A DNA stretch of 64,000 nucleotides from a virus. Below are positions 38,569-59,978 of the stretch, piece by piece. A model generated the notes under the pieces. The model did no database searches and was not told the origin of the DNA. It saw nothing but the letters and a program-made list of their open reading frames with translations. The stretch lies in IMG/VR virus record IMGVR_UViG_3300009168_000004, positions 11,336 through 75,335 of that record; one strand, 5' to 3'. A program made the position numbers and the translations under genes. Positions within the stretch are counted from its first letter, which is position 1, and each line of letters opens with the position of its first letter.

Positions 38569-41189
38569 CAGGTTGCCTCATCTTCGCTGTCGTCTTCGTC
38601 CTCAGTGATCCGCTCGAACTCTTTGATGCGGCCCTTCTCGTCGTGCTTCGTGACCGTCGTGATCTCCCGCCCGCCCCTGTTGACGATGGTCACGGGGACG
38701 GTGACGTGGATCGTCTGCTCGTCCTTCGGGGCGCGCTTGCTGAGGGCGGTCGCCGCGTCCTTCTGGGTCTTGAAGTTCCCGATCTTCCCGTTCTTGTCGT
38801 CGGCCCTCCACCTCACCGCCTCGCCCCGTCCCGACGCGACCGCACCCCCTGCGCCGCCGGACCTCTGCTCGTTCGTGACGACCTGCTTGACGGTGCCCAC
38901 CTTGGTGTTGCCCTTGTAGGCGTTGTAGGACTTGAGCTTGACCGGCGCCTCCTTGCCCAGGACCTTGGTCTCGCGGTTGTGGTCGGAGGCCTCGTACATG
39001 TCCAGGCCTGCGACCTGGCCGGCGAACTTGCCCTTCTCGGTGGTCTCTCCGACCTTGGGCGCAGCCGCTGCCGCCCCTCCGCCCCCGCCCGATCCGAACT
39101 GCCCGTTCTCTGCTCGCTCCTGGTTCTCGTTGTACTCGTCCAGGGCCACCTCGGGGACGTCGGTCTCGTTGTTGAAGCCCGTCATCTGGATCTCCTGGAA
39201 GACCTCGGGCCCGAGGACGATCTCGCCCCGGTAGGGCTCCATCTCGTCGATCTGCTCAGGCCCGTTGTAGGTGATCGTGACGTGCGGGTTGTAGTCCTCG
39301 TAGTCGTACGAGCAGCCCTGGTGCTTCAAGGAGGAGTGGCGCCAGGACAGGTCGGAGTTGCCGAAGGCGAGGACGACAGCCTTGCCGAACCTCTCGACGA
39401 TGCGGGGTCCGCCGGGGACGACGCGGATGTGCCCCTCCAGGTCCTGGCCCCAGGCCTCGCCCATCTTGATCCAGTCGACCGCCTCCTTCGAGTACATGAT
39501 CGTGACGTGCATCTCGGCCGGGGTGACCGTGGACTTGAAGCCCTGCGAGGCCGCCCAGTCGATGATGGCCTGCGCGTTCAGCACCCTGCGGTAGACGTAG
39601 AGGGGCTTCGGGGTCGCGTCGGCGAGGGCGTCCCGGACGGCGGCGTTGCCCGACGGGGTCCGCATCCTGTCCCTGCCCTTGATCCTGCGGCGCCGCTGGG
39701 CAGCCCGGAAGTCGTTGGCCGCCCTCTTGGCCGGGTCCAGGTTGCTGTTGGCGGGCTCGGGCAGATCCGCGTCTGGGTCCTCGGGGTCCACCTCGGCGTT
39801 CGGGTCAGCGTTCGGATCGACCACGGGCTCAGGTTCTGCGCGCAGACCCTCCTCGTGGTCTGGGTCGTCGAACTCCTCGATGATCTGCTCGATGCCTGGG
39901 TAGGTTCCGTCCTCGATGAGCTGCGCCTCCCTGGCCTTCTTGAGCACCACCGGGTCCAGGATCGCGGCATCCACGTCCACCTTGAACGTGTCGGCCTTCT
40001 TCTTCTCCAGGTCAGCCTTCTGCTCCGGCGTCATCTGCCAGAGGGAGTTCCACACGTAGAAGATCTCCTCGGGCTTGGAGCCGAGGGCGGACCGGATCAA
40101 GACTTCGTCCAGGCGCCAGAGCACCGGGGAGTCGTCGTTCTTCTGCTTCGAGGAGACCGAGTCGTAGTAGTTCCTGGTGTCGCTCTCGCCCGTCGCGCTC
40201 ATGCCCGCGGGGGACTGGCCGAAGAAGCGGGTCGCCGGGATGTCGGCTGCGCCGCAGACCATCAGGAAGTACATCTGCAGGATCTCGGGCAGGGACGCGA
40301 ACGAGGCCACCTGCCTCTGCCACTCCTCCTCCTTGTCGATCAGGAGCATGGAGTGCACGCCCTTGATGATGTTGGCGAGGCCGAACCGCTCGAGCAGGTT
40401 CCGCTCGTAGGTCCTGGATGAGATGTTCAGCGTCAGCCCTGGGATCTTGATGATGTCGATCTTCGACTCCGCCACGAGCTGAGCCACCGACGCAGTCACC
40501 AGGCCGCAGGACTTGATGGCGTCGGCGACGTTCAGCAGGACGGAGTCGCCCCAGGGCTGCTTGGTCGTCAGGACGTCCTGTCTCGGCATCCCGACGAAGG
40601 GGACGACGCGGCTCGGGTGGAAGCGGACCAGGGTGCCGTTGAACAGGGAGTGGCGCTCGTAGTAGGAGGGCTCACCGTACCAGGGCGAGGTGATGTCGTC
40701 GATCATGGGGCCAGGCGACACGTCCCAGCGGCTCACCGGGTGCAGGAACTCCAGGTCTCCGACCCTGACCGCCTCGATGTCCACCGGGGTCTCGTTGGAT
40801 GCGCCCTTGATGCCCATGACGATGCCGGCGCCCCCGTAGAGCCGAGCCTTCTGCTTGGCCACCTTCATCTTCTGCTGCAGGCCAAGGCGCTGCTCCTCCG
40901 CCTCGATCGCCGTGATCTCCTCCGGGTCGCCGGCCTGCCAGGACCGCCACTCCCTGGTGGCGTCCTCCGCCGGAATGTCGATGAGCTTCCGGGCGATCCA
41001 GTCGCCGCGGTAGGCCGCGTCGGCCTGCGCCTGGTCCATGTCCGGCATGACCCAGTTGACGCCGGTCATCTTGTCCTTGGCCGTGCCGAGGCCCGTCGCC
41101 AGGTTCTCCAGGCTGTCCCGCGCAGACTTCTGGCTCGGTGGGGGCTTGGATGCCCGACGGGTTGGTGCGGAAGCTGCTCTCTTAGCCAT
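38568..41189 (-). CDS. Portal protein (DUF1073-type) fused to an Acb1-like 2H phosphoesterase
   Basis: [24 protein letters not shown] and [28 protein letters not shown]. The C-terminal part carries MHVTIMYS and PHVTITY. Confidence 0.9.
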
Positions 41190-42735
41190 CTGTGTTACCC
41201 CTGACCCAACTGAGCGATGTGTCGTAGTTGTAGGTCTTCTCGATCATCTTGTTGAAGGCGCCGGCCGAAGCGTCCACCTGGTCCTTGAACTGGCCCGACG
41301 GGAAGGCTTCGTGCTCGTTGATGAAGTCCCGGTTCCACTTCTTTCGCAGGAGCTTGACGTTGCCTGCCTGCACCGCAGCCGCGTAGGGCTCGGCCCGGAC
41401 CTCCTTCTTGCCGGTCACCCGGTCGATGAAGCAGAGGTGCCCGTGCAGGTTGGCGACCGTGCGCTGCGCGCTCTCCTTGCCGCCGGACCCCGGCTCCTGC
41501 TCCACGTAGACGACGGTCCGCTGGATGCTGTCGTCCAGCTCGGCCGTCGCCTTGATCTTGGTCTCTCGGGTGTAGGCGTCCCACTGGCCCCGGACGACGT
41601 CCTCGACGATCACGGTGCCGTCGGCCATCTGGTTCATGAGCACGCCCGCCGTGTGGGCGCCGCCTCCGGACGTGCCGGCCTTGTCCCAGTACCTGACCCG
41701 CTTCTTGATCTCGGACTGGGGGAACGAGCCGATGATGCGCATCTCCTCGATGGGGAACATGCCGCCGCCCTGGATGATCGGGTTCTGCTGATACAGGCTC
41801 TCCCACGAGACTTCGGTGTAGGTCTTCCGCTGCTCCAGGAGGAACTCCAGGGACTTGAACTCTGGGAACAGGGCCTCGCCGACGGACCGGGGCTCGCAGT
41901 TCACCCGGATCGACTCCTCGGTGGCGAAGGCCGGGTAGCGGAGGATGGTCATGTCGGGGAAGCGCTCGATCAGTCGGCCGGCGGGGTCGTCCACGTGCCA
42001 CCTGGTGACGGTCATGAGCATGCCCGCCCGGTCGTCGAACCGGGACATGAAGTCGTCCGTCATCCAGGACCAGGTCTTGTCTCGGATGGTCGGCGACTGC
42101 GCCTCGCCCCGGCCCTTGATCGGATCGTCGACCACGCCGAAGTCCAGCGACTTCCCGGTGATCTGCCCGTCGGGGGCGGTCGTGTTCTCGAAGTAGCCCT
42201 TGCGCCCGACGAAGTGCATCAGGTGGCTGTTCCGCTGGTACTGGCCCGCGTACTCGCCGCCGCCCTTCAGGGGCAGGATGCGCGTGTCCGGGAACGCCCT
42301 CTTGAAGCGATCGTCCTCGAACCGCCTCTGCAGCTCCGTGTTGGTCTTCGTGCCCAGGTCGCCCGAGTACGATGCGAAGATCGTCCGGAAGTCGGGCTCG
42401 TGCCCGTGGAACCAGGACACCCCGTCCTGCACGCTCCTGGACTTTCCATGTTGCGGCGGAGCCATCAGGAGCAGCTTCGGCCGGTGGCCGTTCTTCAGGC
42501 GGATGAAGAACCTCTGCAGGAGGCCGCTGACCTGGCGCGGCCACCAGCCGACCCGCATCTCGGGGTCCATCATCTTGCGGTAGGCGTACAGGTTCTCCCT
42601 GGCCTCCGCCGCTTGCAGGTCCATGATCAGGTCCAGGTCCTGCTGGGTGAACCTGGGGCGGTTGCGGCTGTCGTGCTCTGCGCGGGCGATGGCCTCCCTG
42701 ATCTGCTCCTTGCGGGGGTTGTGCGCGTCCATCAT
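41182..42735 (-). CDS. terL: Terminase large subunit
   Basis: Walker A PPQHGKS, Walker B VVDDPIK, TRWHVDD, YWDKA, EQEPGSGG and FPSG..KDQVDA. Confidence 0.93.
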   Translation of the reverse strand: MMDAHNPRKEQIREAIARAEHDSRNRPRFTQQDLDLIMDLQAAEARENLYAYRKMMDPEMRVGWWPRQVSGLLQRFFIRLKNGHRPKLLLMAPPQHGKSRSVQDGVSWFHGHEPDFRTIFASYSGDLGTKTNTELQRRFEDDRFKRAFPDTRILPLKGGGEYAGQYQRNSHLMHFVGRKGYFENTTAPDGQITGKSLDFGVVDDPIKGRGEAQSPTIRDKTWSWMTDDFMSRFDDRAGMLMTVTRWHVDDPAGRLIERFPDMTILRYPAFATEESIRVNCEPRSVGEALFPEFKSLEFLLEQRKTYTEVSWESLYQQNPIIQGGGMFPIEEMRIIGSFPQSEIKKRVRYWDKAGTSGGGAHTAGVLMNQMADGTVIVEDVVRGQWDAYTRETKIKATAELDDSIQRTVVYVEQEPGSGGKESAQRTVANLHGHLCFIDRVTGKKEVRAEPYAAAVQAGNVKLLRKKWNRDFINEHEAFPSGQFKDQVDASAGAFNKMIEKTYNYDTSLSWVRGNTDG

Positions 42736-43823
42736 CAGAATGCAAAGCTCACGTTGGTGGCTTCGACCTTGTCGACGTCGAGCGGGTCGTCCGGGTCCGT
42801 CTTGAACGTGATCGAGACCGTGATCGTGCCTGGCCCCCTCTTGGTCTCCCCCGTGTTGAAGGTCTTGTAGACCCCGGCCATCTCGTCCTCCGGGAAGCGC
42901 CCGACGTCGTCGTGGTCGACGTTCGGCGGGAAGAAGGCCGGGGCGCCTGCGTAGAAGTCGACGTCGGCGTTGAAGATGTCGTCGGTCGCGACGTCCTCGG
43001 GCTGAACCACCGGCCACGCCTCGTACCCCATGACCTTCAGGTACCGGGCGAACCAGAGCTTGCCCTCGTAGCTGGCCTTGCCGCCGATCGCCCCCGGACG
43101 GGACCAGGTCACGTCGAAGGTCACCACCTTCTGGCCGACGGCGACAGCGGCAGACTTGAGGGCGTCGTAGGCGATCCAGATCAGGCGCGTGCCCGGACCG
43201 ACGGTCTGGGTCTTGGACGCTCCGACCTCGTCGTGGCCGGCAGTCTCGGTCAGCAGGAAGATGTCCCAGTTGAAGCCGGCCAGGCCGATGTCCGTCGCGA
43301 TCGACATGGCGAGGACGTTCGAGTAGAGCGAGCTGGCATCGTCGGGCGCAGTGTAGTCTGAGCCGCCCGCTCCATTCCACGAGACTGTGAACGGCACCTC
43401 CTGCTCGCCGAACGGATCGAAGCCGGAGGAGCAGATCGCCCCGGTCAGCGTGTCGATGAGGACGTACTCACCGGCGTCGATCACGTGGAAGGTCAGCCCG
43501 GAGAAGACCTTCGACCTGGGGTCGGCCACCGCAGGGAACGCGTGGAACTTGTTGGGGGCTGCGGTGAAGGCGGGCACGGGGTCGGCTTCGCTGCCCGGAG
43601 GGGCAGACACCTTCTCTGGGAACGGGCCGTAGGCCAGGACGCCGTCCTGCCAGCCGAACCAGGGGAAGTCCGACTGCAGAGTGATGCGGACGCTGGGGTC
43701 CGTGCCCCCCGACGGGATGCTCGAGTCGACCTGCCCCATGCCCTGGACGAACAGCAGGAGATACCGGCCTCCGGGCCAGTTCACGTTCACCAGGTGCTGG
43801 GTGGGGTCGTGGGCTAGCGGCAT
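42735..43823 (-). CDS. Hypothetical beta-rich protein
   Basis: MPLAHDPTQHLVNVNW start; TGATG coupling on both sides. Confidence 0.7.
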   Translation of the reverse strand: MPLAHDPTQHLVNVNWPGGRYLLLFVQGMGQVDSSIPSGGTDPSVRITLQSDFPWFGWQDGVLAYGPFPEKVSAPPGSEADPVPAFTAAPNKFHAFPAVADPRSKVFSGLTFHVIDAGEYVLIDTLTGAICSSGFDPFGEQEVPFTVSWNGAGGSDYTAPDDASSLYSNVLAMSIATDIGLAGFNWDIFLLTETAGHDEVGASKTQTVGPGTRLIWIAYDALKSAAVAVGQKVVTFDVTWSRPGAIGGKASYEGKLWFARYLKVMGYEAWPVVQPEDVATDDIFNADVDFYAGAPAFFPPNVDHDDVGRFPEDEMAGVYKTFNTGETKRGPGTITVSITFKTDPDDPLDVDKVEATNVSFAF

Positions 43824-44500
43824 CAGCGTGCAGTCCGGCCGAAGGTTCGCTTTGGGAGGTAGCTGTCGGCCCCTGGGGGCTTGCGGAGGGGCTGGACGCT
43901 GGCCCGGTGGTGATACGGGCAGTAGGCCAGCGGACGCGCTCGGCTGGCCCCTGAGGCCCGTGGCGCGTCGCACACCAGCCCGTCGGGCATCGGCCACTGG
44001 CAGCGATCGCCCTCGGGGACGGTGGCATCCCCTGCCGAGGTCGCCATCGGACCCTCGAGGCTGGCGGCTCCCTTGGTTTCCTTGGACTTCGGAGGCCTCA
44101 CCTGGTCGATCTGCATGGTCCTGGACACAAACACGGTGGTGTTCCCCATCCCCATGTTGACCCTGCCAGCCCGAGGCTCAGGTCCGGTCTGAGTGTCCTG
44201 GGACTTGTAGTTCGCCTTGGCTCTGACCCTGCTGATCTGACGCATCTTCACGTCCATCCGCACGCCAGTTGCCCTGCCGGCGGTCCTCGGATACTTCTTC
44301 TGCAGGTCGAGGCGGTGGATCTTGCCCCCGACGGCAGAGATCGTGAAGGTGACACAGGAGCGGGGGAACTCCGCCCGCATCGCCTTGACGATCTTGGCGA
44401 TCGTCAGGTAGGCCCCGCGCGTGCCCGAGTACAGGAGCTCGAGGTGCGCGATCTCCTGAGAGGTCCACCTGCTGTTCGGGGAGTCGGTCTTTGTCATCAT
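43823..44500 (-). CDS. GcrA-like cell-cycle regulator
   Basis: WT...I..L..L...AVGGKIHRL N-terminal HTH and C-terminal CQWP...C...YCPYH..S.QP. Confidence 0.75.
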   Translation of the reverse strand: MMTKTDSPNSRWTSQEIAHLELLYSGTRGAYLTIAKIVKAMRAEFPRSCVTFTISAVGGKIHRLDLQKKYPRTAGRATGVRMDVKMRQISRVRAKANYKSQDTQTGPEPRAGRVNMGMGNTTVFVSRTMQIDQVRPPKSKETKGAASLEGPMATSAGDATVPEGDRCQWPMPDGLVCDAPRASGASRARPLAYCPYHHRASVQPLRKPPGADSYLPKRTFGRTAR

Positions 44501-44784
44501 CAACAGAAGTCTCGTTTTGTTGCGTACAAGTTTAACGACCAATCCTCATGGTCTTTCTACGTTGACAGCATTCTCGTTTTCCTGACAGCAATTGCATCCT
44601 TCTGTTCTCATGACCTTTCTACGTTGACAGGAACTTCGTTTTGGAACCAGCAATTGCATCCTTCTTTTCTCATGACCTTTTGGGGTTAACAGAAATCTCG
44701 TTTTCCGCGTTGCAATTGCATGCTTCAGTTCTCATGGTCTTTTGGGGTTGACAGAAATCTCGTTTTGACCCGTAGAAGTTTAAC
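44499..44784. repeat. 62-bp-period array, block 1 (5 copies)
   Basis: Unit starts at 44499, 44561, 44623, 44685 and 44747. Confidence 0.95.
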
Positions 44785-44789
44785 TGATC

Positions 44790-45083
44790 CTGTGAGCCAC
44801 ATACGCCGGGTGTGTGCCTCATCGGCCGGCCAGTGTGCCGGATGTGTGGCCAGAGGTTCAGGTGTGAGCCGCATACGCTAGCAGTGTGCCTCATCGGTCG
44901 GTTCCCCGACAGGTGTGTGGCCAGAGGTTCAGGTGTGAGCCCTCATTGCCAGGTGTGAGACTCACAGGCGCGGACGGGATCTTGTGCGACGGGTGCAGAT
45001 CCGATGTGTGGCTCACTGGCCGGGTTGTGAGGCTCACTGCTCCGCTGTGGTCCGGATGTGGGGCGTGTGTGCCAGGTGTGTTG
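44790..45083. repeat. TG-rich repeat region, about 71-72-bp period
   Basis: TGTGAGCC at 44791, 44863 and 44934; duplicated GTGTGGCCAGAGGTTCAGGTGTGAGCC; GTGAG-N-CTCAC palindromes at 44955 and 45027. Confidence 0.8.
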
Positions 45084-45307
45084 GTCAACAGAAGTCTCGT
45101 TTTAGTCCGTACAAGTTTAACTTCCATTCCTCATCTTCTGCCAACGTTAACAGGAACTTCGTTTTGATCCAAGCAATTGCATCGATCAGTTCTCATCTTC
45201 TGCCAACGTTAACAGAAATCTCGTTTTAGCCGACGCAAGTTTACCGATCTTTCCTCATGGTCTTTCTACGTTAACAGAAATCTCGTTTTATTCAGTGCAA
45301 GTTTAAC
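45084..45307. repeat. 62-bp-period array, block 2 (4 copies)
   Basis: Unit starts at 45084, 45146, 45208 and 45270. Confidence 0.95.
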
Positions 45308-45650
45308 TGCACTCCTCCCGGAAGCGCCGGCAGTTGCCCTGGCCTCGGTCCCCGCGTTCGTCCTTGAACATGCAGGCGCGGCGCAGCCGCTCGCAGCGGC
45401 CACCTCTACCACCGCCACCAATGATGTCGCCGATGCCCCCAATGACGCCGCCGCCGCCGCCGCCTCCCCTTCCACCGCGCTCATCTCCGCACTGCTCTCG
45501 GAAGCGCCGGCAGTTGCCGTCGCCCCGCTCGCCCAGCGAGTCACGCATCAGGCAGGCTTGGCGCAGAGATCGGCAGTCTTGTGCCTCGACGAGGGTCGGG
45601 ATCAGCCCGACGGTTGCGAGGGAAGCGGCGATCAGGAGTGCCTTGAGCAT
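45303..45650 (-). CDS. Secreted Cys-rich small protein with an internal duplication
   Basis: Signal peptide MLKALLIAASLA...VEA; two C..LR.AC......G.RG.GNCRRFRE.C units joined by a Gly linker. Confidence 0.8.
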   Translation of the reverse strand: MLKALLIAASLATVGLIPTLVEAQDCRSLRQACLMRDSLGERGDGNCRRFREQCGDERGGRGGGGGGGVIGGIGDIIGGGGRGGRCERLRRACMFKDERGDRGQGNCRRFREECS

Positions 45651-45667
45651 TTGGTTGTTTCCCCTTG

Positions 45668-45951
45668 GTTGACAGAAATCTCGTTTTGGAACCAGCAAGT
45701 TTACCGATCCGCTCTCATCTTCTGGTGACGTTGACAGAAATCTCGTTTTATTCCCAGCAAGTTTACCGACCGATCCTCATCTCTCTTCAACGTTGACAGA
45801 AATCTCGTTTTGATCAGTGCAAGTTTACCGATCAATCCTCATGGTCCGTTGGGGTTGACAGAAATCTCGTTTTGATCGGTAGAAGTTTAGCTTTCAGCTC
45901 TCATCTTCTGCCAACGTTGACAGAAATCTCGTTTTCCTGACAGCAAGTTTA
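45668..45951. repeat. 62-bp-period array, block 3 (5 copies)
   Basis: Unit starts at 45668, 45730, 45792, 45854 and 45916. Confidence 0.95.
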
Positions 45952-46425
45952 ATCATCCTCGCCTGTCGTCTGGAAGGCTTCGTCCTCGATCTCAGTAAAC
46001 TCTGCGTCCACGACCGACGGGTCGTCGGGCAGGGATGGGTCGTGCTCGATCAGGGTCGGCGGGCGGTAGCCCCGGTCCAGGAGCTGCTGCCTGAGCTGGG
46101 CGGCGGTCATCTTCGGGCCGCCGTCTGCGCCGACCGCCGCAGCCGTGATCGTCGCATCGACCTGCTTGGGGATGATCTTGCCGACGAGCGGACCGAAGAT
46201 GTCGGGCTTCTTGCGGGACAGCCACACCAGGTAACCGATCGCTCCGTCCTTGCCCTTCCCGTCTGACCCGCTCTTGTGCATGGCGTCGATCACGAGCTCT
46301 TGGACGATGCGCCCGTTCTTGTTGGGAATGCCCTTGCGGGTCTTCGTGGCCTTGTCGCCCTTGTGGAGCGGCTTGAGGCCCCGGTATTGGGGCAGGTCCA
46401 GCTTCGGAGATCTTGATCCGGCCAT
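45949..46425 (-). CDS. Terminase small subunit (probable)
   Basis: RKGIPNK, G.DG.GKDG.IGYL and F..LVGKIIP; first gene of the packaging region. Confidence 0.65.
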   Translation of the reverse strand: MAGSRSPKLDLPQYRGLKPLHKGDKATKTRKGIPNKNGRIVQELVIDAMHKSGSDGKGKDGAIGYLVWLSRKKPDIFGPLVGKIIPKQVDATITAAAVGADGGPKMTAAQLRQQLLDRGYRPPTLIEHDPSLPDDPSVVDAEFTEIEDEAFQTTGEDD

Positions 46426-46549
46426 CCGACACCAAATCTAGTTGTTTGACGGACCGATGAAGGAACCGAACCTGGGCGTCGACCTGGCCGAGCGACGATA
46501 GGGGCCGCTTCCGGACCTTTTTCGAAACCACAAACTCCTATTAGGAACG

Positions 46550-46835
46550 TTCGCTGGACCCACCGGACCCGACGGTCTGGACGGGGAGGGGCTCCCTATA
46601 CTGCTCCTACCCTTATTTTAACCCCTTTTCCCCCCTTTCCTACCCGACGGGACAGCATATTCTCACACACACACGTGCAAAGAATATCCGTCCAGGCGTC
46701 CAGTTCCTCGGCTAACCATCTTGTAATCAAACAATTTTTTGATAGGACGCGTCACTGGACGCCTGGACACGAAAATGGCGGCACCCGTTTTCTGATCTGG
46801 ACGGCCCGACGGGTGGAGGACGGGTCCGGACGGGT
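46550..46835. other. Probable replication origin
   Basis: Multiple TGGACG/CGTCCA iterons in both orientations around AT-rich and pyrimidine-rich tracts, directly downstream of the primase-helicase. Confidence 0.5.
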
Positions 46836-49612
46836 CAGCCCAACGGGGGCACCCGTCCGCGATGCTGCCGGGGTACTTCCGCGTTCAGATCCTGGTCCGT
46901 TCGGCTCAGGGTGGTGTGTCCGCCCTGCCGGTTCGCAAGGAACCCAGCCCTCGCATTCCAGTGCGCCAGCCCCGCCTCGTTCAGCTTCAGACCGCCCACG
47001 TGCCGCTGCGGCTGCCCGAACTTGTCGAACTTGAACATTGCGCTATCCGGGTGGAACTTCAGGGCCTTCGCGAATGCGCCAGGCGACGGGATCGGCAGGC
47101 CGTGGTTCTCCTCTCGCCAACTGTGAAACGCCGCGTAAAGATCCGCGCTGACGTTCATCGCGGTCCGGTCGTACTCGCAGCAATCCCTGACGAAGCCGAT
47201 CGAGATGTTGCTGTCCTCCCGGAGCTCAGCCGAGGCCTCGTCCATGTCAGGAGTGTACGAGTAGTGGCCCCTCGCCAGGGCCCGCTTCATCCCGGCAATA
47301 GCCCAGTTCAGGACGCCTGACTTCTCCTCCTCAAGCACCCAGTCCGCCGGAGACGAGTAGCCCCTCGCAACCGCCTCAGCGGCCACGCCCGTCGGGCGCA
47401 GGGGGTCGAACACCGTCCGGATGCGCAGGATGGCCAGGCGGTTCTCCATTGCCCTGCTCATCTCCCTGAACTGCGGCATCACGTTCGCGCCCCAGAACGA
47501 CGGCCCGCGGTAGACGTGCGCGGTCTGGGCACCGTTCTTGATGTTCACCCCGACGGGGTCCGACGACAGCAGCGCCTTCACCATCGAGCTGATCTCCCAC
47601 TTGGACTGATCGAAGGCTTCGTGCAGGACCCAGGGCACGCTGCGGAGGAACGGCTCCGTGCCGTGCGGCTTTGAGAGCTGGTCGATGGGCTGCGTGATCG
47701 GGGCGTTCGTTATCAGGCCGCTGAGGACGTTCAGGAGGGTCGACTTGCCGGAGTTGCTCTCGCCGACCAGGACCAGAGCCCGCATCAGCGCCTTCTGCTT
47801 CCGGGCCAGGAGCGCCATGCCTAGGTTCTCCTGGATGAATGCGACCGCGCCGTCGTCCTTCACGATGTCCTTGAGCGTCCGCATCCAGATCGGGCAGGCG
47901 GCCGCCGGGTCGTACTCGCACTCGATGCGGGCTGTGGCGTAGTCGTCCGGCCTATGCGGCCGGTGGTGCATGGTTTCCAGGTCGACCAGGCCTGACTGCG
48001 TTGAGATCATCCCGTGCGCGTCCCACTGCACGTCAGCTTCGTCCTGGTGGATCTCCCCCATCCGCTGCAGGTGGGCGATCGTCTCATTGATCACGGTCGT
48101 CGTGGGCACGATGCCCAGGGCGTCGCACCCGACGTTGATCTCTCGAGCTAACCAGGACTTTTCCTCCTTCGTCACCCCGTACATCGCCCACAGCCCATCC
48201 CGGTAGCGCCAGGGCACAGAGCCGATGTACATGAGCTGCTCGCCCCGCTGCTCCAGAGCTGCCAGGACGCCGGCGGCCAGGACCACGTGGGCGTCCTTCT
48301 TGCCCTTTTTCTTCCTCCCCTCCTTGGGCTCAGGCCGGGGCTCGCTCTTCCGCTGCGCACGGACCTGGTCGAGGTGCACCACCTGGGCAGCCCTCCCCGT
48401 CGGGCGGGGTGCTGGCTTCGGCATGGAGGCGAGCTGCTGCATGCCCCGGTTGGCCTGCAGGGAGGCCAGCTCCGGCGGCTCCCCGCCCATCGCTTCGTCT
48501 AGGATCTCGCCGCTGTCGTCCTCAGGATCGTGTGAGCCCTCATCGGCCGTGAGTGCCCTCTCTTCCTCCACTTGGTCCTCTGGCGGCTCCGCCGGGAACT
48601 CGTGGCCCACCTTCTTGATCCACCCCCGCATCGCGCCTCGGACCTTCCGGCGCTCGACGTCCATGTTCCAGCTGTCCTCGGCGACGCGCTCTAGGGCCTC
48701 CATCATCTTGGCCTCGACGAAGTCCTCGGTGTAGCCCTGGGACAGCATGCCCGACGTGACGTCGCGGATGGTCAGGTGGACGGAGAAGGTCTCGTCTATG
48801 CCCTCGTCCCGGCGCTGCTCCAGGTACTCCATCCGGGCCAGGCGGTCCCGCCAGTCGATGTGGTCGGTGTAGCCCTGCAGCTCAGCCACCCGGAGGAACG
48901 GGTTCTCCTGCTCCGCCACCTTCCGCTCCCGGACCTTTCGCGTCAGCACTGGAGGGGCCTCCTGGGCGGCCAGGGAGCCCAGCCAGGCGCTCAGCACCGC
49001 TCGGGGGTACCTTTCCCCCTCGCCAGCCAGCACGCGCACCAGCGCCCACGCCCCGGCTTTGGTGTTGTGGGTTCCCGGAACCCGGAGCAGGGTGACAGCG
49101 TGCCGGGTCGCCTTGTCCCCCGCCAGGTGGTTTCCAAGGACTTGGAGTTCCGCCTCGTAGGCTCTGACGTCCTCGGGTCCGGGCGCATCCGTCGGGTCGG
49201 TGAAGAACCAGTAGGCGTGGACGCCCCCTCCGGACCTGTGCATTCGGCTGGGCGGGTTCGGCAGGGCGGCCAGGGCTGCCAGGACCTCGTCCTCGGTGTT
49301 CAGGATGTCCTTGAAGTCGATGTCGACGTGCAGGCACGTCAGGGCGGCCACGTTGGGCTTGACCCGCTTGTGCCCCTTCAGGATCGGGCTGACGCAGTGG
49401 AAGCAGCCCCGCTCGGCCCTGTCGTGCTTGACCAGGAACCGGCGGATGCGCTCTGGGTCCCTCGTCAGGACGTGGACTTCGCCCTTGCCTGACTGGCCCC
49501 GGACGTTGGGCAGGCTGCACACGTAGACGGGGTGGTCGTGCCCCTGCAGCATGTAGTCGACATAGAGCGTCAGGTCGGCGCCGGGGCCGACTTCTTCGTT
49601 AATCTCAGTCAC
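46835..49612 (-). CDS. Primase-helicase (RepB-like primase, D5_N, SF3 helicase)
   Basis: LHVDID, SGGGVHAYW, LRVPGT.NTK, HRPDDYAT and GESNSGKST. Confidence 0.9.
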   Translation of the reverse strand: MTEINEEVGPGADLTLYVDYMLQGHDHPVYVCSLPNVRGQSGKGEVHVLTRDPERIRRFLVKHDRAERGCFHCVSPILKGHKRVKPNVAALTCLHVDIDFKDILNTEDEVLAALAALPNPPSRMHRSGGGVHAYWFFTDPTDAPGPEDVRAYEAELQVLGNHLAGDKATRHAVTLLRVPGTHNTKAGAWALVRVLAGEGERYPRAVLSAWLGSLAAQEAPPVLTRKVRERKVAEQENPFLRVAELQGYTDHIDWRDRLARMEYLEQRRDEGIDETFSVHLTIRDVTSGMLSQGYTEDFVEAKMMEALERVAEDSWNMDVERRKVRGAMRGWIKKVGHEFPAEPPEDQVEEERALTADEGSHDPEDDSGEILDEAMGGEPPELASLQANRGMQQLASMPKPAPRPTGRAAQVVHLDQVRAQRKSEPRPEPKEGRKKKGKKDAHVVLAAGVLAALEQRGEQLMYIGSVPWRYRDGLWAMYGVTKEEKSWLAREINVGCDALGIVPTTTVINETIAHLQRMGEIHQDEADVQWDAHGMISTQSGLVDLETMHHRPHRPDDYATARIECEYDPAAACPIWMRTLKDIVKDDGAVAFIQENLGMALLARKQKALMRALVLVGESNSGKSTLLNVLSGLITNAPITQPIDQLSKPHGTEPFLRSVPWVLHEAFDQSKWEISSMVKALLSSDPVGVNIKNGAQTAHVYRGPSFWGANVMPQFREMSRAMENRLAILRIRTVFDPLRPTGVAAEAVARGYSSPADWVLEEEKSGVLNWAIAGMKRALARGHYSYTPDMDEASAELREDSNISIGFVRDCCEYDRTAMNVSADLYAAFHSWREENHGLPIPSPGAFAKALKFHPDSAMFKFDKFGQPQRHVGGLKLNEAGLAHWNARAGFLANRQGGHTTLSRTDQDLNAEVPRQHRGRVPPLG

Positions 49613-51787: not shown

Positions 51788-52031
51788 GTGGGATCTTGCT
51801 CACGTCGATGGTGGCGTCGTAGTCCCGCAGGGCATCGTCAGCGAACAGGAGCGCGTTCGCCCGCATCTGGGCGATCCGTTCGCGATTGCGGAGGATGACG
51901 ACAGCGTTCATTGCGCCCGGGATCTGAAGCTGGGCGGACACCGCCGCCACGTACGCGTCGCCCCAGAACTTGGCTCGAAGCTCGTGAACTTTTTCTTTTT
52001 TGACAAAGATGTCAGGCCTGGGAATTGTCAT
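51780..52031 (-). CDS. Hypothetical protein
   Basis: ORF track; coupled to the exonuclease gene. Confidence 0.6.
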   Translation of the reverse strand: MTIPRPDIFVKKEKVHELRAKFWGDAYVAAVSAQLQIPGAMNAVVILRNRERIAQMRANALLFADDALRDYDATIDVSKIPHD

Positions 52032-52141
52032 TCGGCATCTTCCTTCGGGTTATCTGAAGCCCCGCCGTCCGCGCTGGCACCGCACGCGGATGGTCTGAGG
52101 CGAAACGGGGCCGACTGCGTGACCAGCCGACCCCATCCCGC

Positions 52142-52423
52142 TTACGCTGCGATCTGCAGCGGCACGCAATCCGAGGACAGCGGCATGCCAGGTCTCGGTC
52201 TGCACCGAAACTGGATGATCGTGCCCGTCGGGGTGGCCTGCACGGACTGGATCATATCCTTCCGGTCCATGATCGACTGCGCCCTGGCCATGATCGCCAG
52301 CCGCTCATCGCGCTGCTTCTGCTTCAGCGTGCGTCGCTCCACGCTGCCGAAAAGGTTGCCCAGGAAGTCGTCCATGGACTCTTCGCGGCGTGGCGTGGGA
52401 ACGAACTCTACTCGTCCGCACAT
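52142..52423 (-). CDS. Hypothetical protein
   Basis: ORF track; start uncertain. Confidence 0.5.
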   Translation of the reverse strand: MCGRVEFVPTPRREESMDDFLGNLFGSVERRTLKQKQRDERLAIMARAQSIMDRKDMIQSVQATPTGTIIQFRCRPRPGMPLSSDCVPLQIAA

Positions 52424-59288: not shown

Positions 59289-59978
59289 TTACGCCAGGCG
59301 GACCAGCGGTCGATCGCCACGACGCTTACGGCGCAGAGACAGCAGGCCAAGGCCAAGGAAGCCCAAGCCCATCATCGCCCACGTCGCAGGCTCAGGTACG
59401 CCAGCGATCTGCTGGCCGGGGATGAGCCCGGCCTGTCCAGTTGCGTAGCCGGTATCAAACGCGCCGCCGTCCGGATTGAGCGGGTTGAACGCGAAGATGT
59501 GGTCCGACACTACCCGGTTGTTGGAGTTGAGAGCGAAGATGCTCGCAACGCTGTTCCACTGCCCCGTCGGATTGTCGAGCGTGAAGTGGAACTCCGTGAC
59601 CGACCGCGTGAAGCCGTCGAACATGTTGATGGAGGTGTTGAAGTCCCCCCACGTTCCGCCGTTGCTCGAATTGATGCTCAGGACGGATGTCGGCGGGTTG
59701 GTGCCGTTGATGAGCGGCGTCCAACCGATGCCGCTGATCAGATAGTTCGTTGCGGAGAAGTTCAGGTCGAACGCCCCTTGCCCTCCGAACGAGTAGCCGG
59801 TCGCCGCCTGATAGCTGAAGGACGCCGTGTCTCCGTCGATCAGGTTCACAGTCAGCGTGCCGTACGGCGGCAAGAACTGAGCCGGCAGATTGCTCTGCGT
59901 CAGGCTCAGGGTTGCACCAAAGGATGGTGCAATCATTGCTGCCCCCATGGCAGCAGCCAGCAGTAGTTTTTTCAACAT
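59289..59978 (-). CDS. PEP-CTERM (PEPxxWA) surface protein
   Basis: Signal peptide; C-terminal VPEPATWAMMGLGFLGLGLLSLRRKRR. Confidence 0.9.
   Translation of the reverse strand: MLKKLLLAAAMGAAMIAPSFGATLSLTQSNLPAQFLPPYGTLTVNLIDGDTASFSYQAATGYSFGGQGAFDLNFSATNYLISGIGWTPLINGTNPPTSVLSINSSNGGTWGDFNTSINMFDGFTRSVTEFHFTLDNPTGQWNSVASIFALNSNNRVVSDHIFAFNPLNPDGGAFDTGYATGQAGLIPGQQIAGVPEPATWAMMGLGFLGLGLLSLRRKRRGDRPLVRLA

Follow-up and report, generated by a model that had tools for sequence, protein, structure and literature searches.

The F plasmid centromere sopC consists of 12 units of 43 bp, and AT-rich repeated boxes are typical of cosB and pac regions, as in the R sites of lambda, pacL and pacR of SPP1 and the pac hexamers of P1. 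Arbiol et al. reportedly described, in 2010, the PeSLs, mobile regulatory cassettes of T4-type phages. A TIGR unit measures some 36 nt and combines two repeats (8-12 nt) or stems with two spacers, each close to 9 nt in length and bordered by CCA and UG boxes, and the arrays are accompanied by a Nop-domain Tas protein (PMC12045711; bioRxiv 10.64898/2026.09.09.750476). Here we describe a 14-copy tandem array in a 64,000-nucleotide stretch of DNA (the window, to which coordinates refer unless a contig is named) that corresponds to positions 11336-75335 of the phage contig C31, IMG/VR record IMGVR_UViG_3300009168_000004. The array, at 44499-45951, fits no known repeat family and is neither CRISPR nor TIGR. 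Real and statistically solid, it is limited to a single narrow lineage, and most likely it binds a DNA-binding protein.

The array comprises 14 co-oriented units, with an exact 62-bp period within each of three blocks of five, four and five units:

44499-44782, plus strand: array block 1, units 1-5, with unit starts at 44499, 44561, 44623, 44685 and 44747
45084-45305, plus strand: array block 2, units 6-9, with unit starts at 45084, 45146, 45208 and 45270
45668-45951, plus strand: array block 3, units 10-14, with unit starts at 45668, 45730, 45792, 45854 and 45916

The copy number, period, block arrangement and limits had been given in a first-pass annotation made from the letters of the window, and all were confirmed by the sequence itself, by a 16-mer scan and by Tandem Repeats Finder, which returns a period of 62 in each block. 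With as many as three mismatches permitted, the core 16-mer ACAGAAATCTCGTTTT has 14 matches, all on the plus strand, against 0.14 expected from shuffles, and is absent outside the array in the whole 5.77-Mb assembly. Block 3 is the best conserved of the three. The motif is written on the plus strand and the neighbouring genes all lie on the minus strand. GC content is 40-44% in the blocks and 64.5% in the contig overall, and no low-GC stretches of the 75-kb genome are larger than these array segments, in keeping with the earlier description of an AT-rich array in a GC-rich genome. Misassembly is an unlikely source of the array, since a separately built Logan contig of the probable source run is identical over the entire stretch, with zero differences, and pieces of the array are also present in three other metagenomes.

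Each unit is composed, in order, of a 20-mer, an 8-nt variable segment (N8), box B, N10, CTCAT and N11. This order is as first annotated; the start of the unit is, however, better written in the general form GTYRAC (ATCAAC in unit 1, GTCAAC in unit 6), and a further box B variant, GAAGTTTA in units 5 and 13, has to be added. Box B is of two types, AAGTTTA (type A) in 10 units and the palindrome GCAATTGC (type B) in units 2, 3, 4 and 7, and the N10 segment downstream of it co-varies with its type. Variable segments recur exactly as had been listed, with CCTGACAG in units 2 and 14, GGAACCAG in units 3 and 10, and CTTCTGCCAAC in units 6, 7 and 13. The 20-mer averages 0.89 in pairwise identity, box B 0.80 and CTCAT 1.0, compared with 0.37, 0.52 and 0.51 for N8, N10 and N11. 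Column entropy is clustered along the unit (lag-1 autocorrelation 0.42, permutation p = 3e-4), a conservation pattern unlike that produced by drift and gene conversion, and there are no indels among the units, even though their variable parts are only 37-52% alike.

The units also carry internal symmetry. N11 is in part an inverted, degenerate copy of how the 20-mer begins, and the best dyad among the 62 possible centres is the unit boundary itself, tTCTGyCAAC|GTTGACAGAA, averaging 6.2 of 10 pairs and reaching 9 of 12. There is, in addition, a hidden half-period: self-identity is 0.37 at lag 31 and 0.38 at lag 93, against a background of 0.257 (z ~3.7-4), and the two 31-bp halves start GTTGACAGA... 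and GTTTACCGA..., respectively. This self-similarity shows the 62-bp unit to be an old dimer of 31-bp modules. Similarity to the units seemed to continue into the upstream open reading frames (ORFs) at their 3' ends (GAGGAT), but there it was out of register and was dropped.

Near-identical phages with pieces of the array occur in three metagenomes of other studies, from soil and sediment, the data of all four runs compared being contigs. Two of these relatives, X2 and X3, have one unit fewer (83 bp skipped and 21 bp inserted, exactly 62 bp), and in X2 one joint steps back by 124 bp, adding two units; other joints in the relatives connect units of different blocks via novel hybrid units. A single contig of X2 holds most of the GcrA-like gene that adjoins block 1 together with the first array units. 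These 62- and 124-bp changes and hybrid joints show that the array turns over by whole 62-bp units with its period kept. The lack of indels among the units and the changes by multiples of 62 bp in relatives support a constraint on unit length. The first-pass annotation had argued from strict length and free sequence between the boxes to selection on spacing; the first half of that argument stands, whereas the inter-box sequence is not free, given the inverted copy in N11 and the 31-bp half-period.

Further afield the array disappears. A tandem array and a low-GC island near the large terminase gene (TerL) are absent from six viral contigs at 50-52% TerL identity and from the relative L223. L223 has the TerL and portal genes and a homologue of the 158-aa protein encoded upstream of the array, but has neither a GcrA-like gene nor the array. 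Searches of viral contigs, metagenome contigs, 207 family genomes (with the 20-mer) and 400 phylum genomes (BLAST with block 3) turned up no related array, and blastn of 4.5 kb against GenBank phages gave no homologous array. Exact 16-mer scans of viral and genome contigs returned single chance matches only. A possible host-site lead, a 16-mer in three GC-rich Methylobacteriaceae (L098, L157 and L178), with matches upstream of an IclR-type gene and within an FtsK ORF, was dropped because the count fits chance, and a two-unit pattern scan of metagenome and viral contigs gave only unrelated 20-21-bp satellites. Absence from more distant relatives and from all genome and contig searches marks the array as a young insertion, specific to its lineage and placed to the packaging side of the 158-aa gene.

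Might such an array be a neutral minisatellite, in which unequal crossing-over has copied a short gene junction, the boxes being ordinary junction signals kept by gene conversion and the copy number having no function? Copy number and unit order do vary among near relatives, segments are reused mosaically, each unit resembles a stop codon followed by spacer and start codon, and both the absence of the array from more distant relatives and the failure to find a homologue elsewhere would suit such an origin. Neutral drift and gene conversion should, however, spread differences evenly along the unit, where they are strongly clustered; the length is strict despite 50-60% divergence of the linkers; and metagenomes of different studies, four in all, retain the array. 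We regard this explanation as improbable and give it little credence.

We favour instead, tentatively, the view that the array is a set of iteron- or operator-like protein-binding sites that times entry into the late operon. What has been observed is the anatomy of the units, their copy-number dynamics and where they lie, and that they bear no signature of RNA, CRISPR, TIGR or promoters. The anatomy is characteristic of protein sites, with an asymmetric 20-bp core conserved at 89%, a partial dyad, a related half-site, a single orientation, a strict period that survives unit turnover, and DNA more AT-rich than any other in the genome. The array would act as DNA, offering a lineage-specific, fast-recombining set of 14 evenly spaced modules to a sequence-specific DNA-binding protein. 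The 20-mer would be the primary site, forming the partial dyad with the inverted copy in the preceding N11, and box B and CTCAT would provide secondary contacts. A phage protein may bind cooperatively at the fixed spacing and, once bound, coat or loop the only large AT-rich non-coding region of the genome. The resulting complex would gate three downstream payloads: a gene for a Cys-rich secreted protein, a GT-rich cluster of operator-like sites, and the late operon together with the GcrA-like gene at its head. We propose such gating because the array sits at the passage of transcription from the replication genes to the late operon of 35 kb; protein binding, the identity of the binder and a transcriptional output are what we infer from these observations.

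The distribution of promoters elsewhere in the genome points the same way. At least nine promoter-like cassettes of the form TT(G/A)AC(A/G/T)-N20-22-TAnnnT, with a spacer exceeding the usual 17 bp and a conserved leader, ..ctgaaacaaaggaac.., occur at C31 453-9823 and at ~62813 and 59066 of the window (minus strand), in the early and middle regions only. None was seen in the late-region gaps that were printed and read by eye, and entry into the late operon is thus probably controlled at the array. The preferred candidate for the binding protein would be the GcrA-like regulator encoded immediately downstream; it is the only recognisable transcription factor in the neighbourhood and, like the array, is missing from L223. 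Other candidates would be the basic 158-aa protein encoded upstream and an early Zn-ribbon/helix-turn-helix (HTH) protein. The last is a 111-aa protein encoded at C31 10443-10778 on the minus strand (L241:10443-10778), with an N-terminal CxxC...CxxC ribbon and an HTH of the HTH_23, Sigma70_r4_2 or KorA-like kind; it is a candidate sequence-specific phage regulator.

The features around the array, from the replication side to the packaging side, are as follows:

46835-49612, minus strand: D5/P4-alpha-like primase-helicase gene, the last gene of the replication module
46426-46834, no strand: non-coding control region of 409 bp, repeat-rich, between the primase-helicase and 158-aa genes
45949-46425, minus strand: gene for a 158-aa basic/acidic protein (earlier "terS"), with no family or fold assignment
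45303-45650, minus strand: Cys-rich gene, the payload between blocks 3 and 2, encoding 115 aa with a signal peptide and belonging to no family
44783-45083, no strand: GT-rich non-coding payload between blocks 1 and 2, with no coding frame in a map of third-position GC content (GC3)
43823-44497, minus strand: GcrA-like gene (224 aa; Pfam GcrA, E = 4e-5), the first gene of the packaging/head operon
42735-43823, minus strand: orphan ORF of 362 aa between the GcrA-like and TerL genes, its frame confirmed by GC3
41182-42720, minus strand: TerL gene, with GC3 placing the true start near 42720 and not at 43380

Along the direction of transcription the order is thus primase-helicase, the 409-bp non-coding region, the 158-aa gene, block 3, the Cys-rich gene, block 2, the GT-rich segment, block 1, the GcrA-like gene, the 362-aa ORF, TerL and the portal gene. 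On the plus strand each block has a 20-mer at its start and box B at its end, and the TAA stop codons of both the 158-aa gene (45949-45951, in unit 14) and the Cys-rich gene (45303-45305, in unit 9) lie within such a terminal box B, all as previously noted. Read in the direction of transcription, each block starts at the stop codon of the upstream payload, and it ends exactly at the downstream payload. A payload and the block that follows it measure 299 + 286 = 585 bp in one case and 362 + 222 = 584 bp in the other, so that the block ends at 44499, 45084 and 45668 are 585 and 584 bp apart; a payload longer by 63 bp is balanced by one 62-bp unit less. This equality may reflect a length constraint at the level of the module, or coincidence, the rough chance of which is ~5% (about 3 in 62).

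The Cys-rich gene sits cassette-like between array blocks, the 20-mer of unit 10 ending 17 nt before its ATG. Its product has two Cys-rich half-repeats (C-x6-C...C-x7-C) and a Gly run, and matches no family in Pfam, PHROG or PADLOC. The GT-rich segment contains about four repeats of 71-72 bp, at least seven TGTGAG-n-CTCACA sites (operator-like palindromes of the lac/CRP kind) and three CCTCAT motifs, which it has in common with the 62-bp units; its RNA folding is weakly better than that of shuffles (z = -1.7 and -2.3). The GcrA-like gene lies directly downstream of block 1, and unit 1 overlaps its start codon. The protein's GcrA Pfam score is 24.4 bits, under the 26.9-bit cut-off, and a 94%-identical homologue carries a prior annotation as PF07750. 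The 362-aa ORF, which had been put forward as a possible effector, has no homologue or fold that we could find, and the ESM Atlas gave no usable match.

Several points weigh against a protein-binding array that gates transcription. No protein could be linked to the 20-mer motif, so that binding is a proposal, and the 20-mer is no known operator. GANTC, the methylation site preferred by canonical GcrA, is absent from the units. A spacing of 62 bp in 14 copies exceeds the need of any described operator, and neither A/T content nor conservation has a 10.3-bp harmonic within the unit. A scan for sigma-70 consensus promoters found 0 sites on either strand, and terminators were also absent. Transcriptional output is accordingly a conjecture, since there is no sigma-70-type promoter and box B is poor as a -10 element: minus-strand TAAACT could serve as one, but the -35 position is not conserved, a -35-like hexamer (4 of 6 or better) standing 19 bp away, where a sigma-70 spacer is 16-18 bp, in just 7 of the 11 internal units, and the box variants TGCAAT and, in relatives, TAAAAG break the key A2 or T6 of a -10. 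Co-orientation with the genes and the stop and start overlaps would suit a role at the RNA or translation level equally well. Finally, relatives at ~50% TerL identity do without the array, which is thus not a core function of this phage group.

The plus-strand TTGACA has no -10, and local alignment of block 3, on both strands, with the nine phage promoter cassettes gave z <= 2.6, so that the two are unrelated. The sponge for RNA polymerase or CtrA that had also been suggested would find TTAAC in only 4 units and a full CtrA box in none. Resemblances to LexA- or lux-box-like CTGT-N8/10-ACAG, to an FNR/FixK half-box, a Pho-box half, sigma-28, sigma-54 and IHF sites were rejected by eye, since in the unit alignments just one half-site is conserved or the spacing is wrong. 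The strongest conservation harmonic within the unit is 15.5 bp. Wrapping on one face of the helix, or curvature, was rejected for want of the 10.3-bp signal, and within the unit the helical phasing at first suggested as one of the options for the array is likewise not supported.

Could the array act as RNA rather than as DNA? It had been likened to 36-nt repeats with 26-nt spacers, which as a CRISPR organisation (near-identical direct repeats of 23-55 bp and unique spacers of similar length) does not hold: the central 8 nt of the 36-bp "repeat" are hypervariable (identity 0.37), and the 26-bp "spacers" contain the invariant CTCAT and recur (8 N11 variants in 11 units). Rfam returned nothing above noise, with no match to CRISPR-DR families at E <= 5, and PADLOC gave no match in 10 neighbouring proteins, nor Pfam a Cas domain in ~30 C31 proteins. 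TIGR-like or other guide RNAs, a second option of the first-pass annotation, fare no better. A six-frame search for Nop/Tas (PF01798) in the whole assembly, C31 included, gave no match at E <= 1, with control matches in 5 of 14 genomes; divergent Tas proteins could escape the Pfam model. By inspection against the TIGR definitions there are no CCA...UG flanks on either strand of the units; the unit is 62 nt long against ~36; and the RNAalifold consensus is 0.0 kcal/mol in four registers on both strands, with no stems. Neither in the phage nor in the metagenome-assembled genome (MAG) in which C31 was binned do the variable segments find a credible target. Three same-unit co-occurrences were found in the MAG against ~0.3-0.6 expected, all in coding DNA and with inconsistent geometry, and the segments were rejected as guides.

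A role at the RNA level need not involve guides. Transcribed on the minus strand in the late mRNA, the array might act there as a repeated A/U-rich leader or processing site, as a chain of mini-cistrons retaining ribosomes over a lengthy untranslated stretch, or as a source of small RNAs (guide, decoy or sponge). The units are co-oriented with the genes, and blocks start at a stop codon and end at a ribosome-binding site or start codon. The minus strand is purine-rich and C-poor, and on it every internal unit has ATGAG-N10-TAA (for example, 45904-45887). Type A units carry an in-frame 5-codon mini-ORF, always Met-Arg(AGR)-x-x-x (MRxxx), and type B (GCAATTGC) units carry 21-codon ORFs ending at a TGA that overlaps the ATG of the next unit (ATGA). 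The distance from box B to the GcrA-like ATG, 28 nt, equals that from -10 to ATG in the early cassettes. On the other side, the mini-ORFs have no Shine-Dalgarno sequence at a workable distance, in contrast to the real genes of the phage; apart from this lack they are reminiscent of the lambda bar minigenes. The absence of a consensus fold on both strands and of Rfam, Nop/Tas and PADLOC matches counts against RNA readings, as does the fact that the variable segments recur and fall into families. Action in the late mRNA is, in our judgement, rather unlikely. Less probable by far is that the array represents a new class of phage multi-box RNA array, unrelated to CRISPR or TIGR, with a 62-nt unit of three boxes and three variable segments; the late-operon transcript would then be processed to small guide or decoy RNAs, with an unrecognised effector such as the 362-aa or the GcrA-like protein.

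The position of the array raises the possibility of a role in packaging, as an accessory pac or cos platform whose modules would be bound by the small terminase, packaging starting beside the terminase genes. The array lies between TerL and portal on one side and, on the other, a gene whose homologue in L223 is ~1.5 kb upstream of TerL, and its AT-rich repeated boxes resemble those of cosB and pac regions. The "terS" label of the 158-aa protein is nevertheless unverified: synteny with L223 speaks for it and is its sole support, family, structure and fold comparisons providing none. The protein matches only PHROG 11043, of unknown function, and searches of Pfam and the Protein Data Bank (PDB) gave no match; an AlphaFold2 model from a 10-sequence alignment, with a pLDDT of 54, was of too low quality to search for folds. 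No described pac site comes near the array in size (1.45 kb, 14 copies), and it is interrupted by two payloads and a regulator gene. The 10-11-bp phasing expected for wrapping around a small terminase ring is absent, and L223 has homologues of both the 158-aa protein and TerL, yet no array. A packaging platform is thus distinctly improbable.

A closer competitor is an array of replication iterons, an origin or origin-control locus bound by the D5/P4-alpha-like primase-helicase or another initiator, with the AT-rich DNA as unwinding element, as in P4 ori/crr or P1 incC/incA. The general pattern of iterons is present: several co-oriented, asymmetric direct repeats within the 17-22-bp range, here of 20 bp, at regular, constant spacing in an AT-rich region that includes the lowest-GC segments of the genome. 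The array is 1-2.4 kb downstream of the primase-helicase gene, and blocks with a gene between them recall P1 incC-repA-incA and P4 ori with crr. Against this, no initiator or DnaA-type protein was identified, and the array is downstream of the 158-aa gene and hence, by synteny with L223, inside the packaging module. A separate repeat-rich region directly follows the primase-helicase gene: 46426-46834 has an AT-rich core and inverted repeats of the GTCCAG/GGACGGG type, including a perfect 15-nt pair at 46690-46704 and 46754-46768, and is an alternative candidate, either as origin or as promoter for the 158-aa gene. Cumulative GC skew reaches its minimum close to 52 kb of the window (~51950-52150) and not at the array (45 kb), weak evidence given its small amplitude and the location of nearly all genes on one strand. 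That region is a possible origin; an adjoining low-GC gap holds TGACA-TCTT-TGTCA followed by an A-tract. On balance we consider replication iterons unlikely.

Contig C31 is 75,335 bp long and derives from a phage from sediment. Its first 123 bases recur at its end, indicating a closed genome of ~75.2 kb, an overlap that does not locate the genome ends. It encodes a portal protein fused to an Acb1-like domain, a T4-type large terminase, the D5/P4-alpha-like primase-helicase, a RecE/Cas4-like exonuclease and a family A DNA polymerase, nearly all its genes being on the minus strand, and has neither an integrase nor ParB. The only ParB_N match in the assembly, found in testing for a partition centromere, is on contig C171; ParA and RHH were not searched for. 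GATC occurs at 8.2/kb on C31, ~2.5 times a rough base-composition estimate, and GANTC at 1.1/kb.

Binning meets a practical limit here, as the MAG does not reveal which host this 75-kb phage infects. The tetranucleotide correlation of C31 with its bin is 0.895, against a median of 0.997, its GC content is 64.5% against 71.2%, and a CRISPR-spacer link was rejected, the 22-mers in common being chance matches in coding DNA. C31 is thus a compositional outlier with no spacer-like matches, and is probably mis-binned. The GcrA-like gene hints at an alphaproteobacterial host, from the distribution of its family. A 229-aa phage protein encoded at 59289-59978 on the minus strand has a PEP-CTERM sorting motif (E = 9e-6), which implies a host with an exosortase system.

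If the array is indeed a set of protein sites, it is an unusually large and strictly spaced cis-element, recently arisen in one phage lineage. It would make a case for studying a late-switch (or origin or packaging) platform built by amplification of a 31/62-bp module, and would show how spacing persists while sequence and copy number turn over. Should it act as RNA, it would be a third architecture among repeat-array guide systems. The locus is compact, at 1.45 kb with three candidate binders. New here are the 31-bp dimer, the boundary dyad, the gain and loss of whole units in relatives and the presence of a payload downstream of each block.

How, then, does the array compare with the closest known systems? 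Iteron arrays such as P1 incC/incA, P4 ori/crr and lambda ori likewise have asymmetric sites of 17-22 bp in one orientation at constant spacing, in an AT-rich setting beside replication genes, and in several blocks able to flank a gene. The period of our array is, however, 62 bp (31 by half-units) compared with ~22 bp, there are the extra box B and CTCAT, no initiator is identified, and it lies off the GC-skew extreme, on the packaging side of the 158-aa gene. The sopC centromere shares long tandem composite units with one protein site each and a strict period; its units are nearly identical throughout, unlike those described here, and C31, with no ParB/SopB-type protein or integrase, shows no sign of a plasmid-prophage lifestyle. 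The PeSLs are also repeated intergenic modules of ~50-70 bp that flank small accessory genes and promote recombinational shuffling, but each comprises an early promoter and a stem-loop and they are dispersed, whereas our units are tandem, without promoter or hairpin, and mostly have no genes between them.

TIGR arrays (Faure et al. 2025, PMC12045711; bioRxiv 10.64898/2026.09.09.750476) differ in their unit of ~36 rather than 62 nt, with two 8-12-nt repeats rather than three boxes of 20, 8 and 5 nt, and in their Nop/Tas protein, CCA/UG flanks and stems, none of which accompanies our array; here, too, the variable segments (8, 10 and 11 nt) recur and are related. They are alike in being phage-borne, in alternating short boxes with variable segments of 8-11 nt, in having ~5-15 units, and in their sub-arrays a few hundred bp apart that fill intergenic gaps. 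Operator-type repeats of phages and plasmids, namely the stoperators of mycobacteriophage L5, the D29 Gp36 direct repeats (PMC12266134) and R1 parC, with 5+5 iterons around a promoter, are similarly asymmetric, oriented with transcription and confined to small gaps between genes, ahead of late or packaging functions. They are bound cooperatively, head to tail, as we propose for this array. Their sites, however, are of 8-13 bp and are dispersed or few, where C31 has 14 long composite units in tandem, at a strict 62 bp.

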